Source: a virus. Taken from it: a stretch of DNA of 64,000 nucleotides. Position numbers and translations under genes: made by a program. The notes beneath the pieces are model-generated. The model saw nothing but the letters and a program-made list of their open reading frames with translations, was not told where the DNA came from and made no database searches. Location of the stretch: IMG/VR virus record IMGVR_UViG_3300023174_000082, positions 32,001 through 96,000 of that record; one strand, 5' to 3'. This document shows, in pieces, positions 12,835 through 64,000 of the stretch (its first letter is position 1; each line of letters starts with the position of its first letter).

Positions 12835-13688
12835 CTGTTGCCATAGCTTACAGTTCAGGATGCTATGGAACTTATGTTGAGTGGTGCCTAACATCACTCA
12901 CATCCACAGCACCTGTTGTTAGTCCGTTCACTCAGATAGGAAGCAGTCATCGATTTATTGGGCGTCACTTGTATAACCTTGACGGATGGCGTTTATTACT
13001 TGCCCTAAACGACCAGCCGTCTTTTGTTAGATTACACCCAAAACAACATCCAACCATCAGTCTCAGTAAAAATTTAGACTATCTTTGCGAAACCGCCAAG
13101 TCTGTAGTTTATCTTTACCCCGATCGTGAATATCTGTTGTTAGTGTTGAACAACTGGATTACAAAAACTACATTTCATTCTTTTAAAGTATTGTTACATT
13201 CATTAGGGTTGGCTGCAAAAGATACTGAAATTTCAGGTAGTTCACCGCAATGGTTGCAACGCAAATTTCTAAGTGTTCATTTCATATCATGGGTTTTTGA
13301 AATTTTAGAATGGTATCATTTAGATCATTGGTCGCACCCTAATGCTTGTGTGGTAACTGTCAAAGAGTTGTTGTTTGATTTTGAAAATTGCCTTAATAAG
13401 ATACAACAACACTGCAACTTAAAATTTCTTAGATCACCAAATGAGTTGCAATCTTATCATGATCAAAATTTGCAACTACAACAATATCTGCATCAAGACC
13501 AATTGTGCAACAACATTGTTGAATCTGTACTGACTGGTGATAGTTTTTCTTGGCCTGGTTTGCCCTTGATGAGCGAAGCTTGGTTACAATGGCAATTGAG
13601 AAACCTGGGATTCGAAATACAGGGTGATGGGCTTGACAACTTGCCTACAAATAGTTTACAATTGAGAGAACTACTGTATACCGTATGA
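12831..13688 (+). CDS. Hypothetical protein (possible sulfotransferase-like P-loop fold), paralog of 19237..20289
   Basis: 285-aa ORF with 4-nt overlaps to both neighbours; shared N- and C-terminal motifs with the 350-aa ORF. Confidence 0.55.
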   Translation: MTVAIAYSSGCYGTYVEWCLTSLTSTAPVVSPFTQIGSSHRFIGRHLYNLDGWRLLLALNDQPSFVRLHPKQHPTISLSKNLDYLCETAKSVVYLYPDREYLLLVLNNWITKTTFHSFKVLLHSLGLAAKDTEISGSSPQWLQRKFLSVHFISWVFEILEWYHLDHWSHPNACVVTVKELLFDFENCLNKIQQHCNLKFLRSPNELQSYHDQNLQLQQYLHQDQLCNNIVESVLTGDSFSWPGLPLMSEAWLQWQLRNLGFEIQGDGLDNLPTNSLQLRELLYTV

Positions 13689-14698
13689 ACCTATTTAAAA
13701 AAGCTGCCATTTTTACTGACATACATTTTGGACTCAAAAGCAATTCAACCCTGCACAATGAAGACTGTTTGGCCTTTGTAAAATGGGCCACTGCCAAAGC
13801 CAAAGAAGAAGGCTGTGAAACTGCCATGTTCTTGGGCGATTGGCACAACAATCGAGCCAGCCTCAACATTGTTACACTCAACTACAGCCTTCGATCACTG
13901 GAGCACCTGAATGCTAATTTCGACCGTGTGTATTTTATTCCTGGCAATCACGACCTTTATTATCGTGACAAGCGCGATATACAGTCAGTGGAGTGGGCGC
14001 GACACCTCCCAAATGTTGAAATATGCAATGATTGGTTTTCTAGTGGCAACGTTGTTATCGCCCCTTGGTTGTGCGGAGATGATCATAAGAGGATCTCTAA
14101 ACTGACCGGCAAGTATATGTTTGGGCACTTTGAACTGCCAGGCTACTTGATGAATGCCATGGTAGAAATGCCAGACCATGGCGAAGTGCGTAGAGAAGAC
14201 TTTGAGAATTTCGAACATGTATTCACCGGACACTTTCATAAACGACAGACCAAAAAGAATATTACCTACATCGGTAATGCGTTCCCTCACAATTATGCGG
14301 ATGCTGGTGACGACGAACGAGGACTTACTATACTGGAGTGGGGAGGAACGCCTGCGTTTCATGCTTGGCCTGCTCAACCAACCTATAGGGTTTACGGACT
14401 CGCCAACCTTATTGACAACGCTCCGGCTCTTCTTAAGCCCAAAATGCATGTGCGTGTTGGACTAGACATTGAGATCTCATACGAAGAAGCCAACTTCATC
14501 AAAGAAACTTTTGTGAAAGACTATGACTTACGTGAGATGAGCTTGATTCCAAACAAGAACTCAGATGTGGACACAGACATGGCACCTGGTGAGATTAAAT
14601 TTGAGAGTGTGGATCAAATTGTCACAGACCAACTCACTAACATTGAATCAGAATTCTACGACAACAAACTACTGTTGAAGATTTATCAAAACTTATGA
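13685..14698 (+). CDS. gp47: Recombination endonuclease subunit (T4 gp47, Mre11/SbcD-like)
   Basis: Metallophosphoesterase motifs DIHFG, LGD, GNHD, GHF, GHFH. Confidence 0.92.
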   Translation: MNLFKKAAIFTDIHFGLKSNSTLHNEDCLAFVKWATAKAKEEGCETAMFLGDWHNNRASLNIVTLNYSLRSLEHLNANFDRVYFIPGNHDLYYRDKRDIQSVEWARHLPNVEICNDWFSSGNVVIAPWLCGDDHKRISKLTGKYMFGHFELPGYLMNAMVEMPDHGEVRREDFENFEHVFTGHFHKRQTKKNITYIGNAFPHNYADAGDDERGLTILEWGGTPAFHAWPAQPTYRVYGLANLIDNAPALLKPKMHVRVGLDIEISYEEANFIKETFVKDYDLREMSLIPNKNSDVDTDMAPGEIKFESVDQIVTDQLTNIESEFYDNKLLLKIYQNL

Positions 14699-16458
14699 TC
14701 CAAATACGAAATCTCACTGTTAAAAACTTCATGAGTGTGGGTGCCGCCACACAGGCCATTGACTTTGACCGCAATGACCTTACACTGGTGCTGGGCGAAA
14801 ACTTGGACTTGGGTGGCGATGGATCACGCAATGGCACAGGCAAGACCACAATCATCAATGCGCTAAGTTATGCCTTGTACGGTCAAGCACTATCAAACAT
14901 ACGCAAAGACAATTTAGTGAACAAGACCAATGCCAAACACATGTTGGTCAGCCTAGACTTTCACATCAATGGCACAGACTACCGGATCGAACGTGGGCGC
15001 AAACCCAACGTGCTCAAGTTCTATGTGAACAACGAACACAAAGCCGCAGAGGACGAAGCACAAGGAGATTCAAGAGAAACACAAGACGCCATAGAGCGTA
15101 TTATTGGCATGAGCCACGACATGTTCAAACATGTGCTGGCGCTGAACACATATACAGAACCGTTTCTAAGTTTGAAGGCCAATGACCAACGCACTATCAT
15201 TGAGCAGTTGTTGGGCATTACCTTGTTGAGTGAACGTGCTGACCGTATCAAAGAACTCAACCGGCAGACCAAAGATGCCATTCAGTCCGAAGAGTTTAGA
15301 ATTCGTGCTGTGCAAGAAGCCAACAAGCGCATTGAAGAACAAATTACCAGTTTAGAAAAGCGTCGAACCATGTGGTTCAAAAAGCAACAGGAAGATTGTG
15401 CAGGATTTGAAACGGCCATTGGCGACCTTGAACACATTGACATTGATGCCGAAGTACAAGCACACAGAGACTTGGAAGCGTTTCACACTAAGAAAAAAGC
15501 CATTGATGAGGCTAATCGATACATTCGACAAATTGCCGCAGATGATGTCAAGCAACAAAAACTGTTGGACAAACTCCGAACAGAGATTGCAGCCTTGGAC
15601 GATCACAAGTGTCACTCATGTGGACAGGACTTGCATGACAACAAACAAGACGAACTCAAGAAGGCCAAAGAAGAACTGTTAAAAGAAACTGCACTGCAAT
15701 TACTCGCCAACAACACCCAAGAACAAGAACATCGAGCCACGCTGACCAGGCTAGGAGAATTAGGTGTTGCACCCACTGTGTTTTATGACACGCTGGAAGA
15801 TGCACTAAATCATCGCAACACTCTCAGCACATTGCGAACCAGTTTAGACACAAGAAAAACAGAGTCAGATCCATATACGGAACAAATCACAGACATGCAA
15901 GGACAAGCCCTGCAGGTTGTGAGTTACGATCACTTGAACGAACTTACCAGAGTGCAAGACCATCAGGACTTCTTGCTCAAACTGCTAACCTCAAAAGATT
16001 CGTTTGTGCGCAAGAAGATCATTGATCAGAACTTGAGTTATCTCAACAGTCGTCTCACACACTATTTGGACAGAATTGGACTGCCACACACCGTGAAGTT
16101 CATGAACGACTTGAGTGTAAGCATTGAAGAACTGGGTCGCGAATTGGACTTTGACAATCTAAGTCGCGGTGAACGCAATCGATTAATACTCAGCATGAGT
16201 TGGGCATTCCGTGATGTGTGGGAAAGTTTGTACTCGCCTATCAACTTGCTGTTTATTGACGAGATGATTGACAACGGCTTGGACACACAAGGTGTAGAGA
16301 ATGCACTAGGCTTACTGAAGAAGATGAGTCGCGAACGCCACAAATCAATCTGGCTAGTGAGCCATAGAGATGAACTTACCAGCAGGGTAGAAAACATTCT
16401 CAAGGTTATCAAAGAAAACGGCTTTACCAGCTATAACACGGATGTAGAAATTGCGTAA
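14695..16458 (+). CDS. gp46: Recombination ATPase subunit (T4 gp46, Rad50/SbcC-like)
   Basis: KNFMSVG, Walker A NGTGKT, zinc-hook CHSC, signature LSRGE, Walker B LLFIDE. Confidence 0.93.
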   Translation: MIQIRNLTVKNFMSVGAATQAIDFDRNDLTLVLGENLDLGGDGSRNGTGKTTIINALSYALYGQALSNIRKDNLVNKTNAKHMLVSLDFHINGTDYRIERGRKPNVLKFYVNNEHKAAEDEAQGDSRETQDAIERIIGMSHDMFKHVLALNTYTEPFLSLKANDQRTIIEQLLGITLLSERADRIKELNRQTKDAIQSEEFRIRAVQEANKRIEEQITSLEKRRTMWFKKQQEDCAGFETAIGDLEHIDIDAEVQAHRDLEAFHTKKKAIDEANRYIRQIAADDVKQQKLLDKLRTEIAALDDHKCHSCGQDLHDNKQDELKKAKEELLKETALQLLANNTQEQEHRATLTRLGELGVAPTVFYDTLEDALNHRNTLSTLRTSLDTRKTESDPYTEQITDMQGQALQVVSYDHLNELTRVQDHQDFLLKLLTSKDSFVRKKIIDQNLSYLNSRLTHYLDRIGLPHTVKFMNDLSVSIEELGRELDFDNLSRGERNRLILSMSWAFRDVWESLYSPINLLFIDEMIDNGLDTQGVENALGLLKKMSRERHKSIWLVSHRDELTSRVENILKVIKENGFTSYNTDVEIA

Positions 16459-17302
16459 GATCAAAGTATTACACCTTGAACCCACCGATGTGTGCCAAGC
16501 CGCATGCCCAGCATGTGCTAGAGAGACTGACTCAAAGTTTCGCAAGGATCAAAAACATCATTTATCCATTGGGCACATACAACGACATTTTTCTGATCGC
16601 AGGATCAAGAGCCTAGACAAGGTTTTCATGTGCGGTAACTACGGTGATCCAGCCGCTGGTGCATATACTGGTGACATGTACAAATGGTTTAGACAGCTAA
16701 ACCCCACAATCACACTTGGTATGAATACCAACGGTGCCATACAAAACACTTTCTGGTGGCATGAAATTGGACGCTTGTTCAATCAGCCCCGGGACTATGT
16801 GGTATTCAGCATTGATGGATTGGAAGATACCAATGGCGTGTATAGAAAAGGTGTGAACTGGACCAAGCTCATGCAAAATGCACAAGCATTTATCGAAGCA
16901 GGTGGTTCGGCACACTGGGATATGTTGATTTATCAACACAACGAACATCAAGTAGATGAGTGCGAGCAGCTGGCTCGCGACATGGGTTTTAAGTGGTTCC
17001 GTGCCAAAGTCAGCAAACGACCACTGATTGGTAGACTGGAATGGCCACGCAACTATCAAGCACAAACATTTGAAGGCGCTATAAAGTGTCATGCACAGCA
17101 AGAAAAAAGTGCATACATAGATGCTCGTGGCAATCTTAGTCCTTGCTGCTGGATTGGTGCCACACAAACAGATTTTGTTCGCACTGACTCTGTGGTGGAC
17201 TTTTATCCAAAGAAACACGCAACTTGTGTTGCAACTTGTTCAACAGATCAAGCCAAAACAGCATTTTCAAATCAGTGGCGCAAAGAAATTCAGTTATGTT
17301 AG
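16451..17302 (+). CDS. Radical SAM protein with Cys-containing C-terminal (SPASM/twitch-like) domain
   Basis: CQAACPAC CxxxCxxC motif, GNYGDP, TNG, FSIDG, C-terminal PCC. Confidence 0.85.
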   Translation: MRKIKVLHLEPTDVCQAACPACARETDSKFRKDQKHHLSIGHIQRHFSDRRIKSLDKVFMCGNYGDPAAGAYTGDMYKWFRQLNPTITLGMNTNGAIQNTFWWHEIGRLFNQPRDYVVFSIDGLEDTNGVYRKGVNWTKLMQNAQAFIEAGGSAHWDMLIYQHNEHQVDECEQLARDMGFKWFRAKVSKRPLIGRLEWPRNYQAQTFEGAIKCHAQQEKSAYIDARGNLSPCCWIGATQTDFVRTDSVVDFYPKKHATCVATCSTDQAKTAFSNQWRKEIQLC

Positions 17303-18306
17303 CAACTTGGCATTTTCACATTGAGATCTCTAGCAAGTGTACCTTGCAGTGTCCTCGATGTGCCCGCCAAGAAGTGCCCAATGGCCTTGTGAACACAGAA
17401 CTAGATTTAGAATTTTTCAAACGTAACTTTACTCCTGAGTTTGTGAAAGCCAATCTAGAGAAAATTACATTCTGTGGCGATGACGGCGATCCTATCTATG
17501 CACATGATTTGATACCTGTAATTAGCTATCTTAAAAGTATAAAACCTGTTGAAATTGTCATTGTTACCAATGGATCACATAAAAAATTAACTTGGTGGAC
17601 TCAATTGGGTACTTTGTTGGATTCGAAAGATAGTGTTCATTTTAGTATAGATGGTTACGATAACGCCAGCAATAACTTGTATCGAGTAAACAGCGATTAT
17701 AACAGCATCATCGACGGTTTACAAACATTGCGTAGCATAAGTGATTGCCAAATTGTGTGGGCTGCTATTGCGTTCAAGTTCAACGAACATCATATAGACA
17801 CAATGAAAAAAGTTGCCCGACAAATTGGCGTAGACAGATTTCAATTGACCAAGAGCACAAAGTTTGGCAGTGTATATCCATCGTATGGCGTTGACGATCC
17901 ACTTGAACCCAGCGTAAAATTTGTTAGCAGTAGCCACAGATTTGAACGCGAAGTGACTGCTTTTTCAGAAGCAGGCAAATGGACCGCAATTCCACTCACA
18001 AACAACCGACTATTCAATCAAACTCAAAGTCGCAACGGTGTAACGCCGTTATGCGAGATAGGCAACAAAGGTTTATACATTGATGCCCGCGGCAGATTAT
18101 TTCCCTGCTGTTGGGTAGCAAACAGATACAATCACAATTCAGACTGGCAGCAACTCTCAAACCGCTTTGATTTAAACACAAGAACTCTAACAGAAGTATT
18201 GGCAGATAAATTTTGGGCTAACGAGTTCCAAACTTTCCAGTGGCAAGAGTGTCAAACCAAATGCTCTAGTGCATTAGTTGACGAAAAATACGCTACTTCT
18301 TGGTAA
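17296..18306 (+). CDS. Radical SAM protein (paralog of upstream gene); start moved to ATG at 17296
   Basis: CTLQCPRC motif, GDDGDP, TNG, FSIDG, PCC. Confidence 0.85.
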   Translation: MLATWHFHIEISSKCTLQCPRCARQEVPNGLVNTELDLEFFKRNFTPEFVKANLEKITFCGDDGDPIYAHDLIPVISYLKSIKPVEIVIVTNGSHKKLTWWTQLGTLLDSKDSVHFSIDGYDNASNNLYRVNSDYNSIIDGLQTLRSISDCQIVWAAIAFKFNEHHIDTMKKVARQIGVDRFQLTKSTKFGSVYPSYGVDDPLEPSVKFVSSSHRFEREVTAFSEAGKWTAIPLTNNRLFNQTQSRNGVTPLCEIGNKGLYIDARGRLFPCCWVANRYNHNSDWQQLSNRFDLNTRTLTEVLADKFWANEFQTFQWQECQTKCSSALVDEKYATSW

Positions 18307-18340
18307 AAGGACTAACTATAGCACATAATCAAAATCACAC

Positions 18341-18769
18341 ATGACATGGCTTTATCAAGATACCCCAATTGAGACACTGCCCGAAGAATGTGTAGGTTTT
18401 GTTTATCTAATCACAAATAATCTATCTGGACGCAAGTACATAGGCAAAAAATTAGCAAAGTTTAGCAAAACAACATACAAAACAGTCAAACAAAAGAACG
18501 GCACAAAGAAGCGGAAGAAGATACGATCAAAGGTCGACTCAGACTGGAGAGAGTACTATGGGTCAAGCCCAGAATTAACCGCAGATGTAATCAAATTAGG
18601 CACCGAAAACTTTACCAGAGAAATACTTTACTATTGTAAATCAAAATCAGAATGTTCGTACATTGAAGCAAGAGAACAGTTCACAAGAAAAGTATTGGAA
18701 TCAACAGATTATTATAACGGCCATATTCAAGTTCGTGTGCATGGCTCACACATCATAAACAAAATTTAA
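18341..18769 (+). CDS. Minimal GIY-YIG nuclease-domain protein, 142 aa, with Lys-rich insertion
   Basis: GFVY...KYIG motif, YYGS, catalytic-type Glu (YIEAREQ) and YYN; no appended DNA-binding domain. Confidence 0.8.
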   Translation: MTWLYQDTPIETLPEECVGFVYLITNNLSGRKYIGKKLAKFSKTTYKTVKQKNGTKKRKKIRSKVDSDWREYYGSSPELTADVIKLGTENFTREILYYCKSKSECSYIEAREQFTRKVLESTDYYNGHIQVRVHGSHIINKI

Positions 18770-18779
18770 AATCAACTAA

Positions 18780-19237
18780 CACCTAAGGTTGGCGGGCCAG
18801 TTTGTAATACCGCTGTGGAAAAACCGGGGAATAACCGGACACGTGACATATTGAGGCACTCCCCTGGGTAAATCCCAGTATCCTGAAAAATGGAAGTGAG
18901 TCTGAGGCTAGAACAATAGGGCCGACGCATTGATATAGTATGAATGTTAGCATACGAGAAACCGTGCTATAAAAACTTAGATACTAGGAACGAGGTCTAA
19001 GACGCTTAACAAGCGAGTCGATGTAGGTTGGGAAAGATCAGAGCCCATTAGCATCACGGTAAAAACACCTACTTCCAATGTCTAGGCTGTGACCACTCAC
19101 ATGAAGACAACAGCGGAACCGAGCAAAACGGTTCCGTCTGACTGAAACAATCTACATGAATACTTAATCGCTTCGCTCTTGAAAATCAATCACATTAACG
19201 AGCGATAGCGAAGTTAATAGACTTGCGTAGCAAGTCT
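18780..19237 (+). ncRNA. Candidate large structured non-coding RNA (family not recognised); strand inferred from the upstream gene
   Basis: About 460 nt without an ORF in an otherwise gene-dense genome; about ten local hairpins plus several long-range complementary pairs (see findings). Confidence 0.6.
19219..19237. terminator. Hairpin at the junction of convergent transcription units
   Basis: AGACTTGC-GTA-GCAAGTCT perfect 8-bp stem abutting the stop codon of the minus-strand operon; no clear U-tract. Confidence 0.45.
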
Positions 19238-20289
19238 TAAATGTTGTAAATGTTTTCAACTGAATGAATGTTTGGTTCTAACAACTTGTGTAGATCTTGT
19301 GTGTTGTTAGGAAACTTTTCAAGTTGCCAAGTTTTTAAATTGAGACCATGTTGATATATCAAACAGTGTTGTATGATTATTTCTTGATCAAATGTGAGAT
19401 CAATTTCGTAATACAAGTTGTTCACGATGGCGTCAACAATATGTGGTTGATTGTAACAGAAGTCTAAGAGATCTAACTGTTTCTTTTGCCAGGCTTTACA
19501 GATAGGTAACCAAGCATCAAATCTATGTTTGTTAATCTCCAAATCAAGATACACCATTACTTTCCCAATCACAGTTTCAGTTCGAGTCCACAAGTCCAAA
19601 CAGTTGATCCAATAATGCGGATGTTGATAATCAAATTTAAAATCAAAGTGATCAAAGTCAAATGGCCGAATGTTTAACGCAAGCCGTTCGCGTCTGTCCC
19701 AAGTGTTGGTCAACTGCAATTCTTGAAATGTTGTTTGACTTGATTTGTTAAACAAGTTATCTATAAAATTGAATAGATCTTCTTCTGATTCTGGCGGACC
19801 ATTTTTGAAACCCAAATACGTTGATAAGTTTCTTGTGTTTCTAGAATAAAGCACAGATCTAGGTTCATTGGCTACGTAGATAATGTCAGTCTGTGTGTCT
19901 TTGCAAATGTCAAAAATTTTAGCATAATCGTCTGACATGTGTTGTTTTAGTTGATGGTACACATCAGTAGATTCAAGGCTACTGGTGTCAAGATTTAATC
20001 TTTTGGCAATTGTTCCTGGCATCAAGTTGATTGGGTACGTAGAATATATTGCATCCAACGGAAGTGAATCAAATTTTTCTATTTCACGTTTGAACTCGTC
20101 TGCTCCTACTGGGTGATTTTTTAAATGTCCGTGAGCATTTAATTTTGTAATAGGATCGTGAGTCAAGTCAATCCATTGGTCAAGACTTACATTGTAGTAT
20201 TTTGACTGCCCAGATAAAAAATGAATGCTCCAGTCAACAAATGTACAACCTAAAGAATGCTTGCTGGTAACACATATTTTTTTGTTCAT
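19237..20289 (-). CDS. Hypothetical protein, paralog of 12831..13688
   Basis: 350-aa AT-rich ORF coupled to the nucleosidase gene. Confidence 0.55.
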   Translation of the reverse strand: MNKKICVTSKHSLGCTFVDWSIHFLSGQSKYYNVSLDQWIDLTHDPITKLNAHGHLKNHPVGADEFKREIEKFDSLPLDAIYSTYPINLMPGTIAKRLNLDTSSLESTDVYHQLKQHMSDDYAKIFDICKDTQTDIIYVANEPRSVLYSRNTRNLSTYLGFKNGPPESEEDLFNFIDNLFNKSSQTTFQELQLTNTWDRRERLALNIRPFDFDHFDFKFDYQHPHYWINCLDLWTRTETVIGKVMVYLDLEINKHRFDAWLPICKAWQKKQLDLLDFCYNQPHIVDAIVNNLYYEIDLTFDQEIIIQHCLIYQHGLNLKTWQLEKFPNNTQDLHKLLEPNIHSVENIYNI

Positions 20290-31377: not shown

Positions 31378-32574
31378 ATGTCACAAGAACTATTAGAAAG
31401 TCGTTGGGATGAGACCAAAGAGGCCCTGTTAGAAGGCCTCCAAGGCACCAAACGCAATAGCATGAAAGTTATTCTTGAGAATACTCGTCGCTATTTGAAA
31501 GAGAATGCTTCTTCTGGAAGTACTGTTTCTGGCAACATTGCCACACTTAACCGTGTGATTCTGCCAGTTATCCGTCGTGTGATGCCAACTGTTATTGCTA
31601 ACGAGTTGGTTGGTGTTCAGCCAATGACTGGCCCTGTTGGTCAAATCCACACCTTGCGTGTGCGATATGCTCAGAGCTTGACTGACAATTCTGCTGCTGC
31701 AACTTCTGTTACAGCCGGCCAAGAAGCATTGAGCCCATTCACAATTGCTACAGCTTACTCTACTGTTCCACAAGGAACATCAACAGCTACAGCCTACACC
31801 GGCGGCTCAACAGCCAGCATGGAAGGTACTGGCGGTAAGCAAATCAGCGTTCAAATCTTGAAACAAGCTGTTGAAGCCAAGACCCGCAAGCTGCAAGCTC
31901 GTTGGACATTTGAATCTGCACAAGACGCACAAGCCATGCATGGTATTGACGTTGAAGCAGAAATCATGGCTGCTCTAGCTCAAGAGATTACCGCTGAAAT
32001 TGACCAAGAGATTCTTTTGAGCTTGCGCTCATTGGCATCTACTGAGTTCACATACAACCAAGCTACCGTTTCGGGTACAGCTACATTCGTTGGTGACGAA
32101 CACGCCGCTTTGGCAGTGTTGATCAACCGTGTTGCTAACTTGATCGCCCAACGTACTCGTCGTGGCGCTGGTAACTACGCTGTTGTGTCTTCAGCTGCTC
32201 TGACAGTGTTGCAAAGTGCAACAACTTCAGCTTTTGCTCGTACCACAGAAGGCACCTTTGAAGCACCTACAAACACCAAGTTTGTTGGTACATTGAACGG
32301 CGCTATGCGTGTGTTCGTTGACAGTTATGCCAGCGATACAACTCCAGTTCTGGTTGGCTACAAAGGCTCTTCAGAAGCTGACGCTCCTGCATTCTACTGC
32401 CCATACATTCCTTTGATGAGCAGTGGTGTTGTGTTGGATCCAACAACCTTTGAACCAGTGGTGTCATTCATGACACGTTATGGTTACATTGAGTTGACCA
32501 ACACTGCATCGTCATTCGGTAACGCCGGTGACTATGTGGGTGAGATCGCTGTATCTAACTTGTCATTCTCCTAA
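31378..32574 (+). CDS. gp23: Major capsid protein (T4 gp23-like)
   Basis: VGVQPMTGPVGQI, VEAKTRKLQARWT.E.AQD..AMHGID, EITAEIDQE, AFYCPYIPL, FMTRYG. Confidence 0.96.
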   Translation: MSQELLESRWDETKEALLEGLQGTKRNSMKVILENTRRYLKENASSGSTVSGNIATLNRVILPVIRRVMPTVIANELVGVQPMTGPVGQIHTLRVRYAQSLTDNSAAATSVTAGQEALSPFTIATAYSTVPQGTSTATAYTGGSTASMEGTGGKQISVQILKQAVEAKTRKLQARWTFESAQDAQAMHGIDVEAEIMAALAQEITAEIDQEILLSLRSLASTEFTYNQATVSGTATFVGDEHAALAVLINRVANLIAQRTRRGAGNYAVVSSAALTVLQSATTSAFARTTEGTFEAPTNTKFVGTLNGAMRVFVDSYASDTTPVLVGYKGSSEADAPAFYCPYIPLMSSGVVLDPTTFEPVVSFMTRYGYIELTNTASSFGNAGDYVGEIAVSNLSFS

Positions 32575-33922: not shown

Positions 33923-34708
33923 ATGGGACGTCCTCTTAAAATACAAAAATCAAGCACTGGTTCAGGCAACGGCGGCGCAGCCGTTAGCGTCGACATTGGC
34001 TTTCCAAATTTTGGATCATTAACTGCCCCTGTGACCAACACAGGCGACACACTCAGTGCTACTGAATATCTTGGCGTGGTGGGTGGCGCAGCCCCTACTG
34101 ATACACCAACTACAACCAATCCTAGAATTGACGTAATTGTGAACATTGCTGCACCTAGTGGATCTGGTATTGGTGTTGCCGCAGGATATATCATCCGTCA
34201 AAAAGGTTCACACAAATACCTAGTTGGTGATGCTACTGGCGTTAACGATGGCAGTTTTGTTGTTGGGCAAGCATATCAAATTTCCACAGTTGGCACAACC
34301 ACTAACTGGACCGCAGCCGGTGCTCCTGCTAATTTTGGATTAGGCACAATTTTCACAGCAACTTCTGTTGGGGGAGCTGGCAACGGCGCAGCATACTCGG
34401 TGGGTGTTTGTGTACTAGACGATGACACTACTCCAGCAGCTGGATTGATGGCTATCACATTTACAGTCACTGATTCTACTGCTACCACAATCTCCAAATT
34501 GACCAACAAGTTCTTGTTAGATTGGACTGGCGGTTCAACTTATGCGGCAGCAAGTGTTGTGGCTGACAAGCGTTATGCAACCAACTTCTTTACTGACGAA
34601 GGTACAGTTATCAAATCAGGTACTACTGCAACAGCAAACACAGGCACAGTACAAAGCGGACAACAAAATCTGCTTGACTTGGCCATTGTTGACAACGTTA
34701 CTTCTTAA
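33923..34708 (+). CDS. Putative virion structural/decoration protein, 261 aa
   Basis: MGRPLK N-terminus, YIIRQKGSHKYLV motif, Thr/Gly-rich; late promoter and strong RBS. Confidence 0.6.
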   Translation: MGRPLKIQKSSTGSGNGGAAVSVDIGFPNFGSLTAPVTNTGDTLSATEYLGVVGGAAPTDTPTTTNPRIDVIVNIAAPSGSGIGVAAGYIIRQKGSHKYLVGDATGVNDGSFVVGQAYQISTVGTTTNWTAAGAPANFGLGTIFTATSVGGAGNGAAYSVGVCVLDDDTTPAAGLMAITFTVTDSTATTISKLTNKFLLDWTGGSTYAAASVVADKRYATNFFTDEGTVIKSGTTATANTGTVQSGQQNLLDLAIVDNVTS

Positions 34709-63470: not shown

Positions 63471-64000
63471 ATGGCTCTAGTATCCCCAGGCGTAGAAGTA
63501 ACAGTAATTGACGAAAGTCAATATATCCCTTCAGCCGTTAACACCGTACCGTATTTTCTCATTGCCACTGCACAAAACAAAGTGTCCGGCGATGGAGTAA
63601 CTGTTGCTGCTGGCACAACTGCTGCCAACGCCAACAAGACTTATTTAATCACCAGTCAACGAGATTTGGTGGCCACTTTTGGTGTGCCATTCTTTTATTC
63701 TACCACAACTGGAACTCCTATCAACGGTTACGAACTCAACGAATATGGCTTGCTTGCCGCTTATTCAGCACTAGGCGTCACAAATCGTGCCTACATACAA
63801 CGTTGCGACATTGACTTAACTGAACTTACTGCTAGTTTGACTCGTCCAGTGGGCGAACCAGCTGACGGTACCTACTGGTTGGATACATCAACTTCAGTTT
63901 GGGGCATCCAAGAGTGGAATGAAACCACCAATGTTTTCACTGTTAATGCACCAATTCAAATTATCAGCACAGATGACGTTGTTGATGCCGCAGGCGGAGA
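63471..64000 (+). CDS. gp18: Tail sheath protein (T4 gp18-like), truncated by window end
   Basis: Translates MALVSPGVEVTVIDESQY...ITSQRDLVATFG.P; TAAATA at 63440-63445 and AAGGA RBS. Confidence 0.88.
   Translation, partial: MALVSPGVEVTVIDESQYIPSAVNTVPYFLIATAQNKVSGDGVTVAAGTTAANANKTYLITSQRDLVATFGVPFFYSTTTGTPINGYELNEYGLLAAYSALGVTNRAYIQRCDIDLTELTASLTRPVGEPADGTYWLDTSTSVWGIQEWNETTNVFTVNAPIQIISTDDVVDAAGG

Follow-up and report, generated by a model that had tools for sequence, protein, structure and literature searches.

Within a 64,000-nucleotide (nt) stretch of viral DNA (hereafter the window; positions 32001–96000 of the 116,950-bp viral contig IMGVR_UViG_3300023174_000082, CheckV completeness 34%), the segment between a small GIY-YIG nuclease gene and the convergent gene that follows it (window positions 18770–19237) encodes a large structured + strand RNA that is real, abundant and uncatalogued. 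Three subtypes of this RNA occur among related phages, A (the window's own), B and C, which have different 5′ halves and a common 3′ core. Within the core, two direct repeats 47–64 nt apart flank a conserved hairpin and share one and the same 7-nt word, which varies from phage to phage, and these matched words are a genuine oddity. A preliminary description, made from the letters alone, had singled out the region as a candidate nuclease–RNA system. As we place them, the parts of the RNA are the following:

18770–19237 (+): the whole RNA, subtype A, from just after the GIY-YIG stop codon to the terminal hairpin; 467 nt here
18776–18965 (+): subtype-specific 5′ domain, with hairpins at 18824–18838 and 18864–18878 (both with compensatory changes), a conserved GGAAG block near 18892 and a hairpin at 18938–18955
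18976–19001 and 19003–19015 (+): two neighbouring hairpins, with compensatory changes in 3 of 7 and 5 of 5 pairs and 100% and 94.9% of cells paired
19017–19165 (+): 3′ core common to all subtypes (cmsearch with model R1 from subtype C: 20 bits, E 0.0045, full model length)
19095–19105 (+): twin-word unit 1, ACTC plus the 7-nt word ACATGAA
19114–19136 (+): hairpin between the word units, 8 pairs, almost invariant in subtype A; the subtype C equivalent (helices 15 and 16) has compensatory changes
19150–19160 (+): twin-word unit 2, ATCT plus the 7-nt word ACATGAA, 55 nt after unit 1
19194–19218 (+): hairpin in which the stem is hypervariable and the 13-nt loop, GAGCGATAGCGAA, conserved; in subtype C (helix 17) 6 of 6 pairs have compensatory changes
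19219–19237 (+): terminal hairpin AGACTTGC/GCAAGTCT, at the 3′ end of the RNA and the convergent junction; compensatory changes in 7 of 8 pairs (subtype A) and 7 of 7 (subtype C)

The evidence for this fold comes from two alignments: A1, with 48 full-length subtype C sequences and a structure written by eye from them, and A2, with 19 distinct subtype A sequences (a number reached with 14 motif-found loci added). In subtype C the structure has 93 pairs in 18 helices and two pseudoknots, one of H-type at the 5′ end and the other joining a hairpin loop to a strand ~130 nt downstream. There, 93.1% of cells are paired, against 78.4% in shuffles (0 of 500 reach the observed value) and 34–41% when partners are slid by 1–3 columns, and the covariation score is 0.419 against 0.166. 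Since the structure was taken from the same alignment, it is favoured over the slid controls; the counts of compensatory changes (changes on both sides of a pair) are independent of that. Aligning the regions downstream of the gene and looking for covariation, as the preliminary description had suggested, gave compensatory changes in 60 pairs in subtype C and in 21 pairs in subtype A, where the stems first noted are 91.1% paired (31–40% when slid; 83.1% in shuffles, with 0 of 500 reaching that value). RNAalifold, run unaided on subtype C, recovered 64 pairs, 36 of them with compensatory changes.

The 12 stems and long-range pairs of the preliminary description all lie where it placed them, letter for letter, and comparison with relatives now separates them. 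Five (CCGG/CCGG, CTGGG/CCCAG, CTTAGAT/GTCTAAG, CGCTT/AAGCG and the terminal AGACTTGC/GCAAGTCT) carry compensatory changes among the 19 subtype A sequences. Four more (GGCGG/CCGCT, GTATG/CATAC, the inner CGGAACCG/CGGTTCCG pairing and the long-range GTAGGT/ACCTAC) are compatible with the alignment, but are almost invariant and uninformative. The pair ACCGTG/CACGGT is only 41.6% paired as aligned, yet pairs one register over in 14 of the 19 sequences (a by-eye reading of A2). The others fail: one-sided changes break TGGAAGT/ACTTCCA in 2–8 of 19 sequences per pair with zero compensation, one pair of GTGAGT/ACTCAC is broken in 8 of 19, and the outer CAG/CTG of the 19111–19140 stem is paired in 5 of 19 and 8 of 19 only. 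Crossing pairs had suggested pseudoknots or alternative folds. Covariation in subtype C supports a pseudoknotted, conserved RNA (helices 1 and 11), and the loop of the subtype A hairpin at 18938–18955 is similar to the loop that forms a pseudoknot in subtype C (helices 10 and 11). Separately, in the minimum free energy (MFE) fold the stretch TCGCTTCGCTC (19168–19178) is able to pair with the loop GAGCGATAGCGAA (19200–19212) of the next hairpin; in other relatives this stretch forms a small hairpin of its own or is deleted, and the pairing is possibly a third, facultative pseudoknot.

The gap that holds the RNA was described as the largest in the window without an open reading frame (ORF), which is true of internal gaps (18770–19236, 467 nt; tested as free of ORFs of 60, 80 or 100 amino acids (aa)), although a longer one (63481–64000) touches the window end. 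Coding was considered and rejected: there is no + strand ORF of at least 40 aa, and a short ORF that starts in unit 1 is broken by 1- and 2-nt insertions or deletions among relatives (by-eye reading of A2). The + strand of the gap folds with an MFE of −128.5 kcal/mol (z = −3.0, 0 of 100 shuffles as good) and the minus strand more weakly (z = −2.3). In subtype C pairs, G–U cells outnumber A–C cells by 303 to 84, which argues that the + strand is the folded strand, and GNRA-type loops occur on the + strand only (A1). These observations bear on the idea that the site acts as DNA, as a replication origin or a recombination or packaging site whose hairpins and repeats work in the double helix. Direct repeats do flank a palindrome here, beside the recombination genes gp46 and gp47, and matched repeats occur also in protein-bound DNA sites. 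Against this stand the G–U excess and the strand-specific GNRA-type loops, together with loop-to-strand pseudoknots that carry compensatory changes (helices 1 and 11) and the lack of any composition or skew shift at the site, and we consider a DNA-level role highly improbable.

The preliminary description had reckoned with a known Rfam family as one outcome. None of the 4227 models of Rfam 15, which include group I introns, GOLLD, ROOL, HEARO and self-cleaving ribozymes, matches the region at its gathering score, and at E ≤ 10 the stretch 18650–19350 gives one chance-level match, to a mammalian long non-coding RNA (12 bits against a gathering score of 40, E 2.5). The same search did detect freshwater-2, a motif of Weinberg 2017, elsewhere in the window, yet nothing at this RNA. 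That freshwater-2 match (RF02980, 33840–33925, + strand, 68.6 bits against a gathering score of 49.9) is the sole Rfam match in the window at gathering threshold, and ends at the ATG of the ORF at 33923–34708. A group I intron or its remnant was rejected as well, as the upstream ORF is complete with its own stop codon, the downstream genes lie on the opposite strand in most loci, the flanking genes vary and there is no Rfam match. Full-text literature searches found no description of an RNA after this gene, with the supplementary motif lists of Weinberg 2017 outside the search, so that a prior listing is possible; in the main text of that paper (PMC5737381), GIY-YIG, freshwater and nuclease are all unmentioned.

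The RNA is abundant, with hundreds of related phages from lakes sharing it, and its covariation is unusually clean. A protein-based scan turned up close relatives of the linked nuclease on at least 597 viral contigs, 80 of which were examined, and a scan for the RNA motif added at least 120 further stretches. The RNA-first set comprises 134 loci, of which the 101 with at least 1,600 nt upstream were counted, and overlaps the GIY-first set in contigs. By blastn, the RNA region is 82–88% identical over its full length in 10 other loci; with an iterated nhmmer profile it was found in 76 of 82 GIY-first loci, and the six misses are five loci with <210 nt of downstream DNA and one (L060) with two extra ORFs across its 2 kb. 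In relatives the RNA is 382–601 nt long and the ORF-free stretch mostly ~380–500 nt. A covariance model of the core found exactly one copy in each of three near-complete relatives (331–347 kb) and zero in the whole genomes of Melnitz-3 and S-SSM7.

In position, the RNA always stands at the 3′ end of a rightward block (gp55–gp47–gp46–zero to two radical SAM genes–small nuclease), usually at the junction with leftward genes. Upstream, either gp46 or one or two radical SAM genes precede the nuclease gene, and the downstream neighbours vary widely. Where an extra ORF (88–356 aa) follows the GIY-YIG gene, as in some loci, the conserved region sits after that ORF; a Pfam search assigned these inserted ORFs to no family. 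Behind the RNA, one contig from an RNA run joins 19237 straight to 20325 and omits the ORF at 19237–20289. This joint, and likewise a locus (L003) with a PNP-family gene right after the RNA, indicates that the gene after the RNA is variable.

Such a position invites the interpretation of a purely cis-acting 3′ element, one that would protect the 3′ end of the upstream messenger RNA, or insulate or terminate the convergent units, and would do nothing in trans. The element always ends the + strand block, even after ORF insertions behind the GIY-YIG gene, and its terminal hairpin, which covaries strongly, directly adjoins the stop codon of the convergent gene. Yet ~400–470 nt with two pseudoknots, conserved loops and matched words far exceed what 3′ end protection needs, in two loci (L091 and L150) the RNA is embedded in an array of genes that run in the same direction and is not placed at a convergent junction, and there is no + strand intrinsic terminator site in 18200–19400, the terminal hairpin being without a T run. 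We judge this interpretation to be rather unlikely. On the other strand, the hairpin between the words (19136–19114, −) does form a terminator-like site, in subtype A only; one such site is no more than shuffled sequences give.

How the RNA is transcribed can be outlined from its setting. Its first conserved block begins ~7 nt past the GIY-YIG stop codon, and it is plausible that the RNA is co-transcribed with the nuclease gene; a sigma-70 scan of 18200–19400 gave three + strand consensus matches, no excess over shuffled sequences (mean 2.8), but one of them, at 18745–18772, straddles the stop codon, so that the RNA may have its own promoter. Contigs from three metatranscriptome runs in three studies cover 18770–19232, and one RNA-library contig (18680–18957) crosses the stop codon. 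The stretch 19233–20195 is almost uncovered by RNA-run contigs, which are unable to show absence. The large RNA co-transcribed with the nuclease that the preliminary description envisaged has held up as a conserved, same-strand RNA directly after the stop codon, with one contig spanning that codon, but its co-transcription is itself only plausible.

The twin words, which in the window lie at 19099–19105 and 19154–19160, are the most unusual part of the RNA. Among the column pairs with the highest mutual information are some that are identical rather than complementary. In 135 of 140 distinct unit pairs all 7 positions of the word agree, the fully matched words being of 12 kinds, and identity between units drops to 17% at the position after the word; because unit pairs were chosen by best match (at least 5 of 7) beside constant flanks, these counts involve a mild circularity. 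Rare words appear in both units together (AGATCAA, AGACGAA, GCATAAT and ACGAAAT), and in one locus each of the two units has lost 2 nt. With the words masked, a tree of the RNA around them implies at least 32 word changes, a count that recombination may inflate, with 98 of 101 rows concordant. The occurrence of AGATCAA, AGACGAA and ACGAAAT in both units led us to drop readings of the words as K-turns, CsrA sites, stop codons or ribosome-hopping sites. An antiparallel helix between the units, predicted by RNAalifold in the non-A subtypes, was also discarded, as pairing by hand gives two C–C clashes for the AC word of the window and leaves the matching unexplained. The 6-kb loci hold no exact reverse complements of the words. 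In 117 kb of this genome the 7-mer occurs 11 + 9 times, close to the ~14 of a rough chance estimate, and a reading of the word as a genome-wide motif was dropped; its extended complement is found only in the antisense of the units, plus one other site. Identity of two words whose choice is free is what would be expected if one reader meets both sites, either a pairing partner in trans or a nascent strand that re-pairs after a polymerase jump. Such concerted evolution of two direct repeats is unexplained by ordinary RNA folding and points to a specific, testable mechanism.

The second kind of reader would make the RNA a template, with a polymerase jumping between the matched words as on the DRT2 RNA with its ACA-1 and ACA-2 repeats. 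Short identical direct repeats that flank a hairpin, with free choice of word, are what template jumping demands, and there is a precedent in that breaking the ACA homology is reported to abolish DRT2 function (PMC11100668). Against it, a search of this genome's 117 kb and of five relatives, three being 95–100% complete, found no RVT_1 reverse transcriptase. The repeat period of 47–64 nt shows no preference for multiples of 3 (32 of 136), and a stop-free concatemer frame is rare where the period is not divisible by 3 (7 of 104 sequences only); of the 32 sequences with a divisible period 28 have one, for which a single open frame suffices. A never-ending ORF of the DRT2 kind was rejected on these frame counts. 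Contigs of four RNA runs contain no head-to-tail joint of the words, a weak point since contigs drop rare forms. A template function thus appears very unlikely to us.

The gene that precedes the RNA is the following:

18341–18769 (+): small stand-alone GIY-YIG nuclease gene, 142 aa, with a SegE/I-TevI-type catalytic domain, a Lys/Arg-rich beta-hairpin insert and no DNA-binding tail

Its product is, by sequence profile and predicted structure, a GIY-YIG nuclease of the SegE/I-TevI type, with the conserved Tyr, Tyr, Glu and Asn positions present. Pfam PF19835 (SegE_GIY-YIG) covers the whole protein (E 4.1e-33, profile positions 1–123 of 123), phrog_447 matches it with E 8e-38, and an AlphaFold2 model (predicted local distance difference test score 97.1) folds the Lys/Arg insert as a beta hairpin (residues 40–66). 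In a Foldseek search of the Protein Data Bank (PDB), the sole meaningful fold match was the catalytic domain of I-TevI (1LN0 and 1MK0, probability 0.93–0.94). These results agree with the preliminary description of a bare catalytic domain plus a Lys/Arg-rich insert, lacking a DNA-binding domain. Residues Y22, Y33, G35, K37, Y72, S75, E109 and N126 are invariant in 76 homologues, and some of them we take to be catalytic by analogy with I-TevI. A likeness to T4 endonuclease II, also considered, was not upheld, as neither the single protein nor a 76-sequence profile had a PDB sequence match and Foldseek returned I-TevI only. The family has 2,170 cluster representatives and, insert included, is found in 524 GenBank phage records, mostly of cyanophages, in which the gene is widespread and conserved. 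Many of these records, and phrog_447, label the homologues 'NAD synthetase' (for example NC_015287.1, 195003–195440, which is L084:3971–4408); this is a mislabelling, the Pfam match and the predicted fold both pointing to a GIY-YIG nuclease.

A nuclease–RNA system draws its support from this neighbourhood. In it the RNA would bind the product of the upstream nuclease gene, and the twin words would bring two catalytic domains to a target; alternatively, the RNA would regulate or inhibit the enzyme. The gene lies upstream on the same strand, within 1.5 kb, in 95 of the 101 RNA-first loci (82 directly, 13 with an ORF between). Three of the six loci without a small GIY-YIG gene have another nuclease gene in the slot: a 172–173-aa PD-(D/E)XK nuclease in L130 (335–853, −) and L192 (11831–12352, +; PF24608, E 7e-26 and 4e-26, respectively), and in L186 (2526–3599, +) a 357-aa GIY-YIG protein of SegE type that carries a NUMOD3 motif, shares 35% identity with the window protein in the catalytic domain and is separated from the RNA by an 81-aa ORF. 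No DNA-binding tail is present in the small enzyme, whose beta hairpin is basic, and the hypervariable words sit inside a conserved scaffold. This swap of nucleases in one slot is one line that keeps the idea of a guide RNA alive, and RNA and nuclease may be coupled.

Several lines of evidence speak against such a system. In three GenBank phages inspected among the 524 family records, Methylophilales phage Melnitz-3 (49.6% identity), S-SSM7 and BUCT-ZZ01, other genes directly follow the nuclease gene with no long gap, and the model search was negative in the first two. The other three RNA loci that lack the small GIY-YIG gene (L091, L141 and L150) have no nuclease near the RNA, and that gene is absent from these three contigs and from L130 and L192 across 16–93 kb each. 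Gene and RNA are in some loci set apart by unrelated ORFs of 88–356 aa. None of the nuclease alignment columns follows the variable words (0.36 is the best mutual information, for an entropy of 0.95), and the basic hairpin, which could be taken as a hint of RNA binding, is family-wide, present also in homologues without the RNA and in the long L186 protein. Moreover, all RNA-bearing loci belong to one phage lineage, so that inherited gene order would explain most of the linkage. The earlier proposal that the RNA binds, guides or gives specificity to the nuclease is therefore one we now regard as unlikely. Of what it had expected, conserved linkage holds in the RNA-first loci but not in the three GenBank phages, and for a variable guide-like segment within a scaffold the candidate is the hypervariable word, which is internal and present twice, and for which no complementary target was found nearby or in 117 kb. 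Two classes were considered for the pair and set aside: IscB/TnpB-type co-occurrence throughout the nuclease family, given the three phages without a gap and the 6 of 101 RNA loci without the gene, and a homing endonuclease, given an occurrence that is not sporadic, the missing DNA-binding tail and a NUMOD3 motif in L186 only.

Taken as a whole, the evidence leads us to lean, with modest confidence, towards a novel RNA that acts in its own right and is not a specificity subunit of the nuclease. We hypothesize that the transcript from upstream would have this RNA as its 3′ part and end at the covarying terminal hairpin, and that the RNA would serve as a scaffold, a decoy or a catalyst. On this view it would have nuclease genes as neighbours through inherited gene order, in a plastic region that small nuclease genes and other ORFs enter and leave. 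Most speculatively, specificity may lie in two identical single-stranded 7-nt words on either side of the conserved hairpin. A single partner would read both of them, in the simplest case a nucleic acid acting in trans that is not the same in different phage lines. A bolder proposal is that the words are a new RNA specificity device, two copies of a freely evolvable 7-nt address in a rigid scaffold that dock two copies, or both strands, of a target for the neighbouring small nuclease of whatever fold (GIY-YIG, PD-(D/E)XK or Seg), or let a polymerase jump. This strikes us as unlikely; if true, it would be an RNA-programmed activity that has no described counterpart in T4-like phages.

Several points weigh against the explanation we favour. 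No pairing partner of the words within the RNA emerges from mutual information (3′ part, and full-length subtype C), wobble-tolerant complementary sites from −2.5 to +1.5 kb are hardly commoner than for shuffled words (best bin 9 of 151 against 5.0), and a search of this genome's 117 kb found no complementary partner. The slot that precedes the RNA is occupied by nuclease genes of three unrelated or distant types, which is more than plain synteny predicts. The contigs from RNA libraries are no more than a hint of transcription, because such libraries may contain DNA, the subtype A structure comes from 19 rather similar sequences only, and the ends of the RNA, like the functional role proposed for it, are placed from sequence.

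The surrounding genes set the RNA in a phage context:

11938–12834 (+): late sigma factor (gp55), in the upstream block
13685–14698 (+): SbcD/gp47-like gene, in the upstream block
14695–16458 (+): Rad50/gp46-like gene, in the upstream block
16451–17302 and 17224–18306 (+): pair of radical SAM genes (SPASM domain in the second) that follows the gp46-like gene and precedes the GIY-YIG gene; 0, 1 or 2 such genes in relatives
19237–20289 (−): convergent gene after the RNA, the first of the minus-strand genes; its stop codon abuts the terminal hairpin

This gene set (late sigma factor, gp47- and gp46-like genes) marks the phage as T4-like. With relatives of up to 331–347 kb (three of them 95–100% complete, one with terminal repeats), the lineage is one of ~330–350-kb freshwater T4-like phages, and it had zero DNA matches among 50,697 GenBank phage records, making it a jumbo lineage without a cultured member among the records searched. 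A scan of cellular genomes by RNA pattern gave 27 matches, of which 24 fail the model beyond the 21-nt hairpin set by the pattern itself (3 partial, 21 none). The remaining three (L225, L232 and L237, on contigs of 1.7, 148 and 183 kb in GTDB genomes) are the same phage locus, carry the GIY-YIG gene and the RNA with matched words, and were binned in Flavobacteriales and Haliscomenobacter metagenome-assembled genomes (MAGs). They are probably phage contigs inside MAG bins, and offer a weak hint of a Bacteroidota host for the lineage.

To our knowledge, only a small number of large RNAs with many pseudoknots are on record from bacteria or phages. Large RNAs of known function include ribozymes, the cores of ribonucleoproteins and guide RNAs, as when HEARO became the omega-RNA of IscB. 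With HEARO/IscB the present RNA shares a large pseudoknotted structure beside a compact nuclease gene that has no DNA-recognition domain, and a variable segment in a conserved scaffold. The HEARO/IscB RNA carries one guide, at an end, and is, as far as we know, present wherever its nuclease family is. Here, in contrast, the nuclease is of the GIY-YIG type, from a family in 524 GenBank records, and no RNA gap follows it in the three of these inspected; the RNA is located behind the gene and is separable from it, its variable element is an internal word present twice, and it has no Rfam match. Adjacency of a minimal nuclease and an ornate RNA does not alone make an RNA-guided nuclease. The T4-type Seg proteins, free-standing GIY-YIG homing endonucleases (in T4 a seg gene lies among tRNA genes), share the PF19835 catalytic domain, and in L186 the same slot holds the full form, NUMOD3 tail included, but the 142-aa form lacks the DNA-binding tail and, far from being sporadic, accompanies 95 of 101 RNA-first loci.

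Two further groups of RNAs invite comparison with the RNA itself. GOLLD and ROOL are large ornate RNAs often found in phages or prophages, for which the biochemical function is likewise unknown (PMC5737381, PMC12286853); unlike them, the present RNA has no Rfam similarity, is smaller (382–601 nt) and lies in a window with no tRNA genes. The DRT2 RNA, with which we group the DRT10/telomerase-type template RNAs for comparison (10.64898/2026.06.29.735271), is also pseudoknotted, with two short identical direct repeats flanking a structured segment, the template in DRT2, and their identity is functionally required there (PMC11100668). It differs in that here no reverse transcriptase was found (117 kb and five relatives) and the concatemer has no open frame, and in that the words of DRT2 are 3 nt long and conserved, whereas those described here are 7 nt long and hypervariable.

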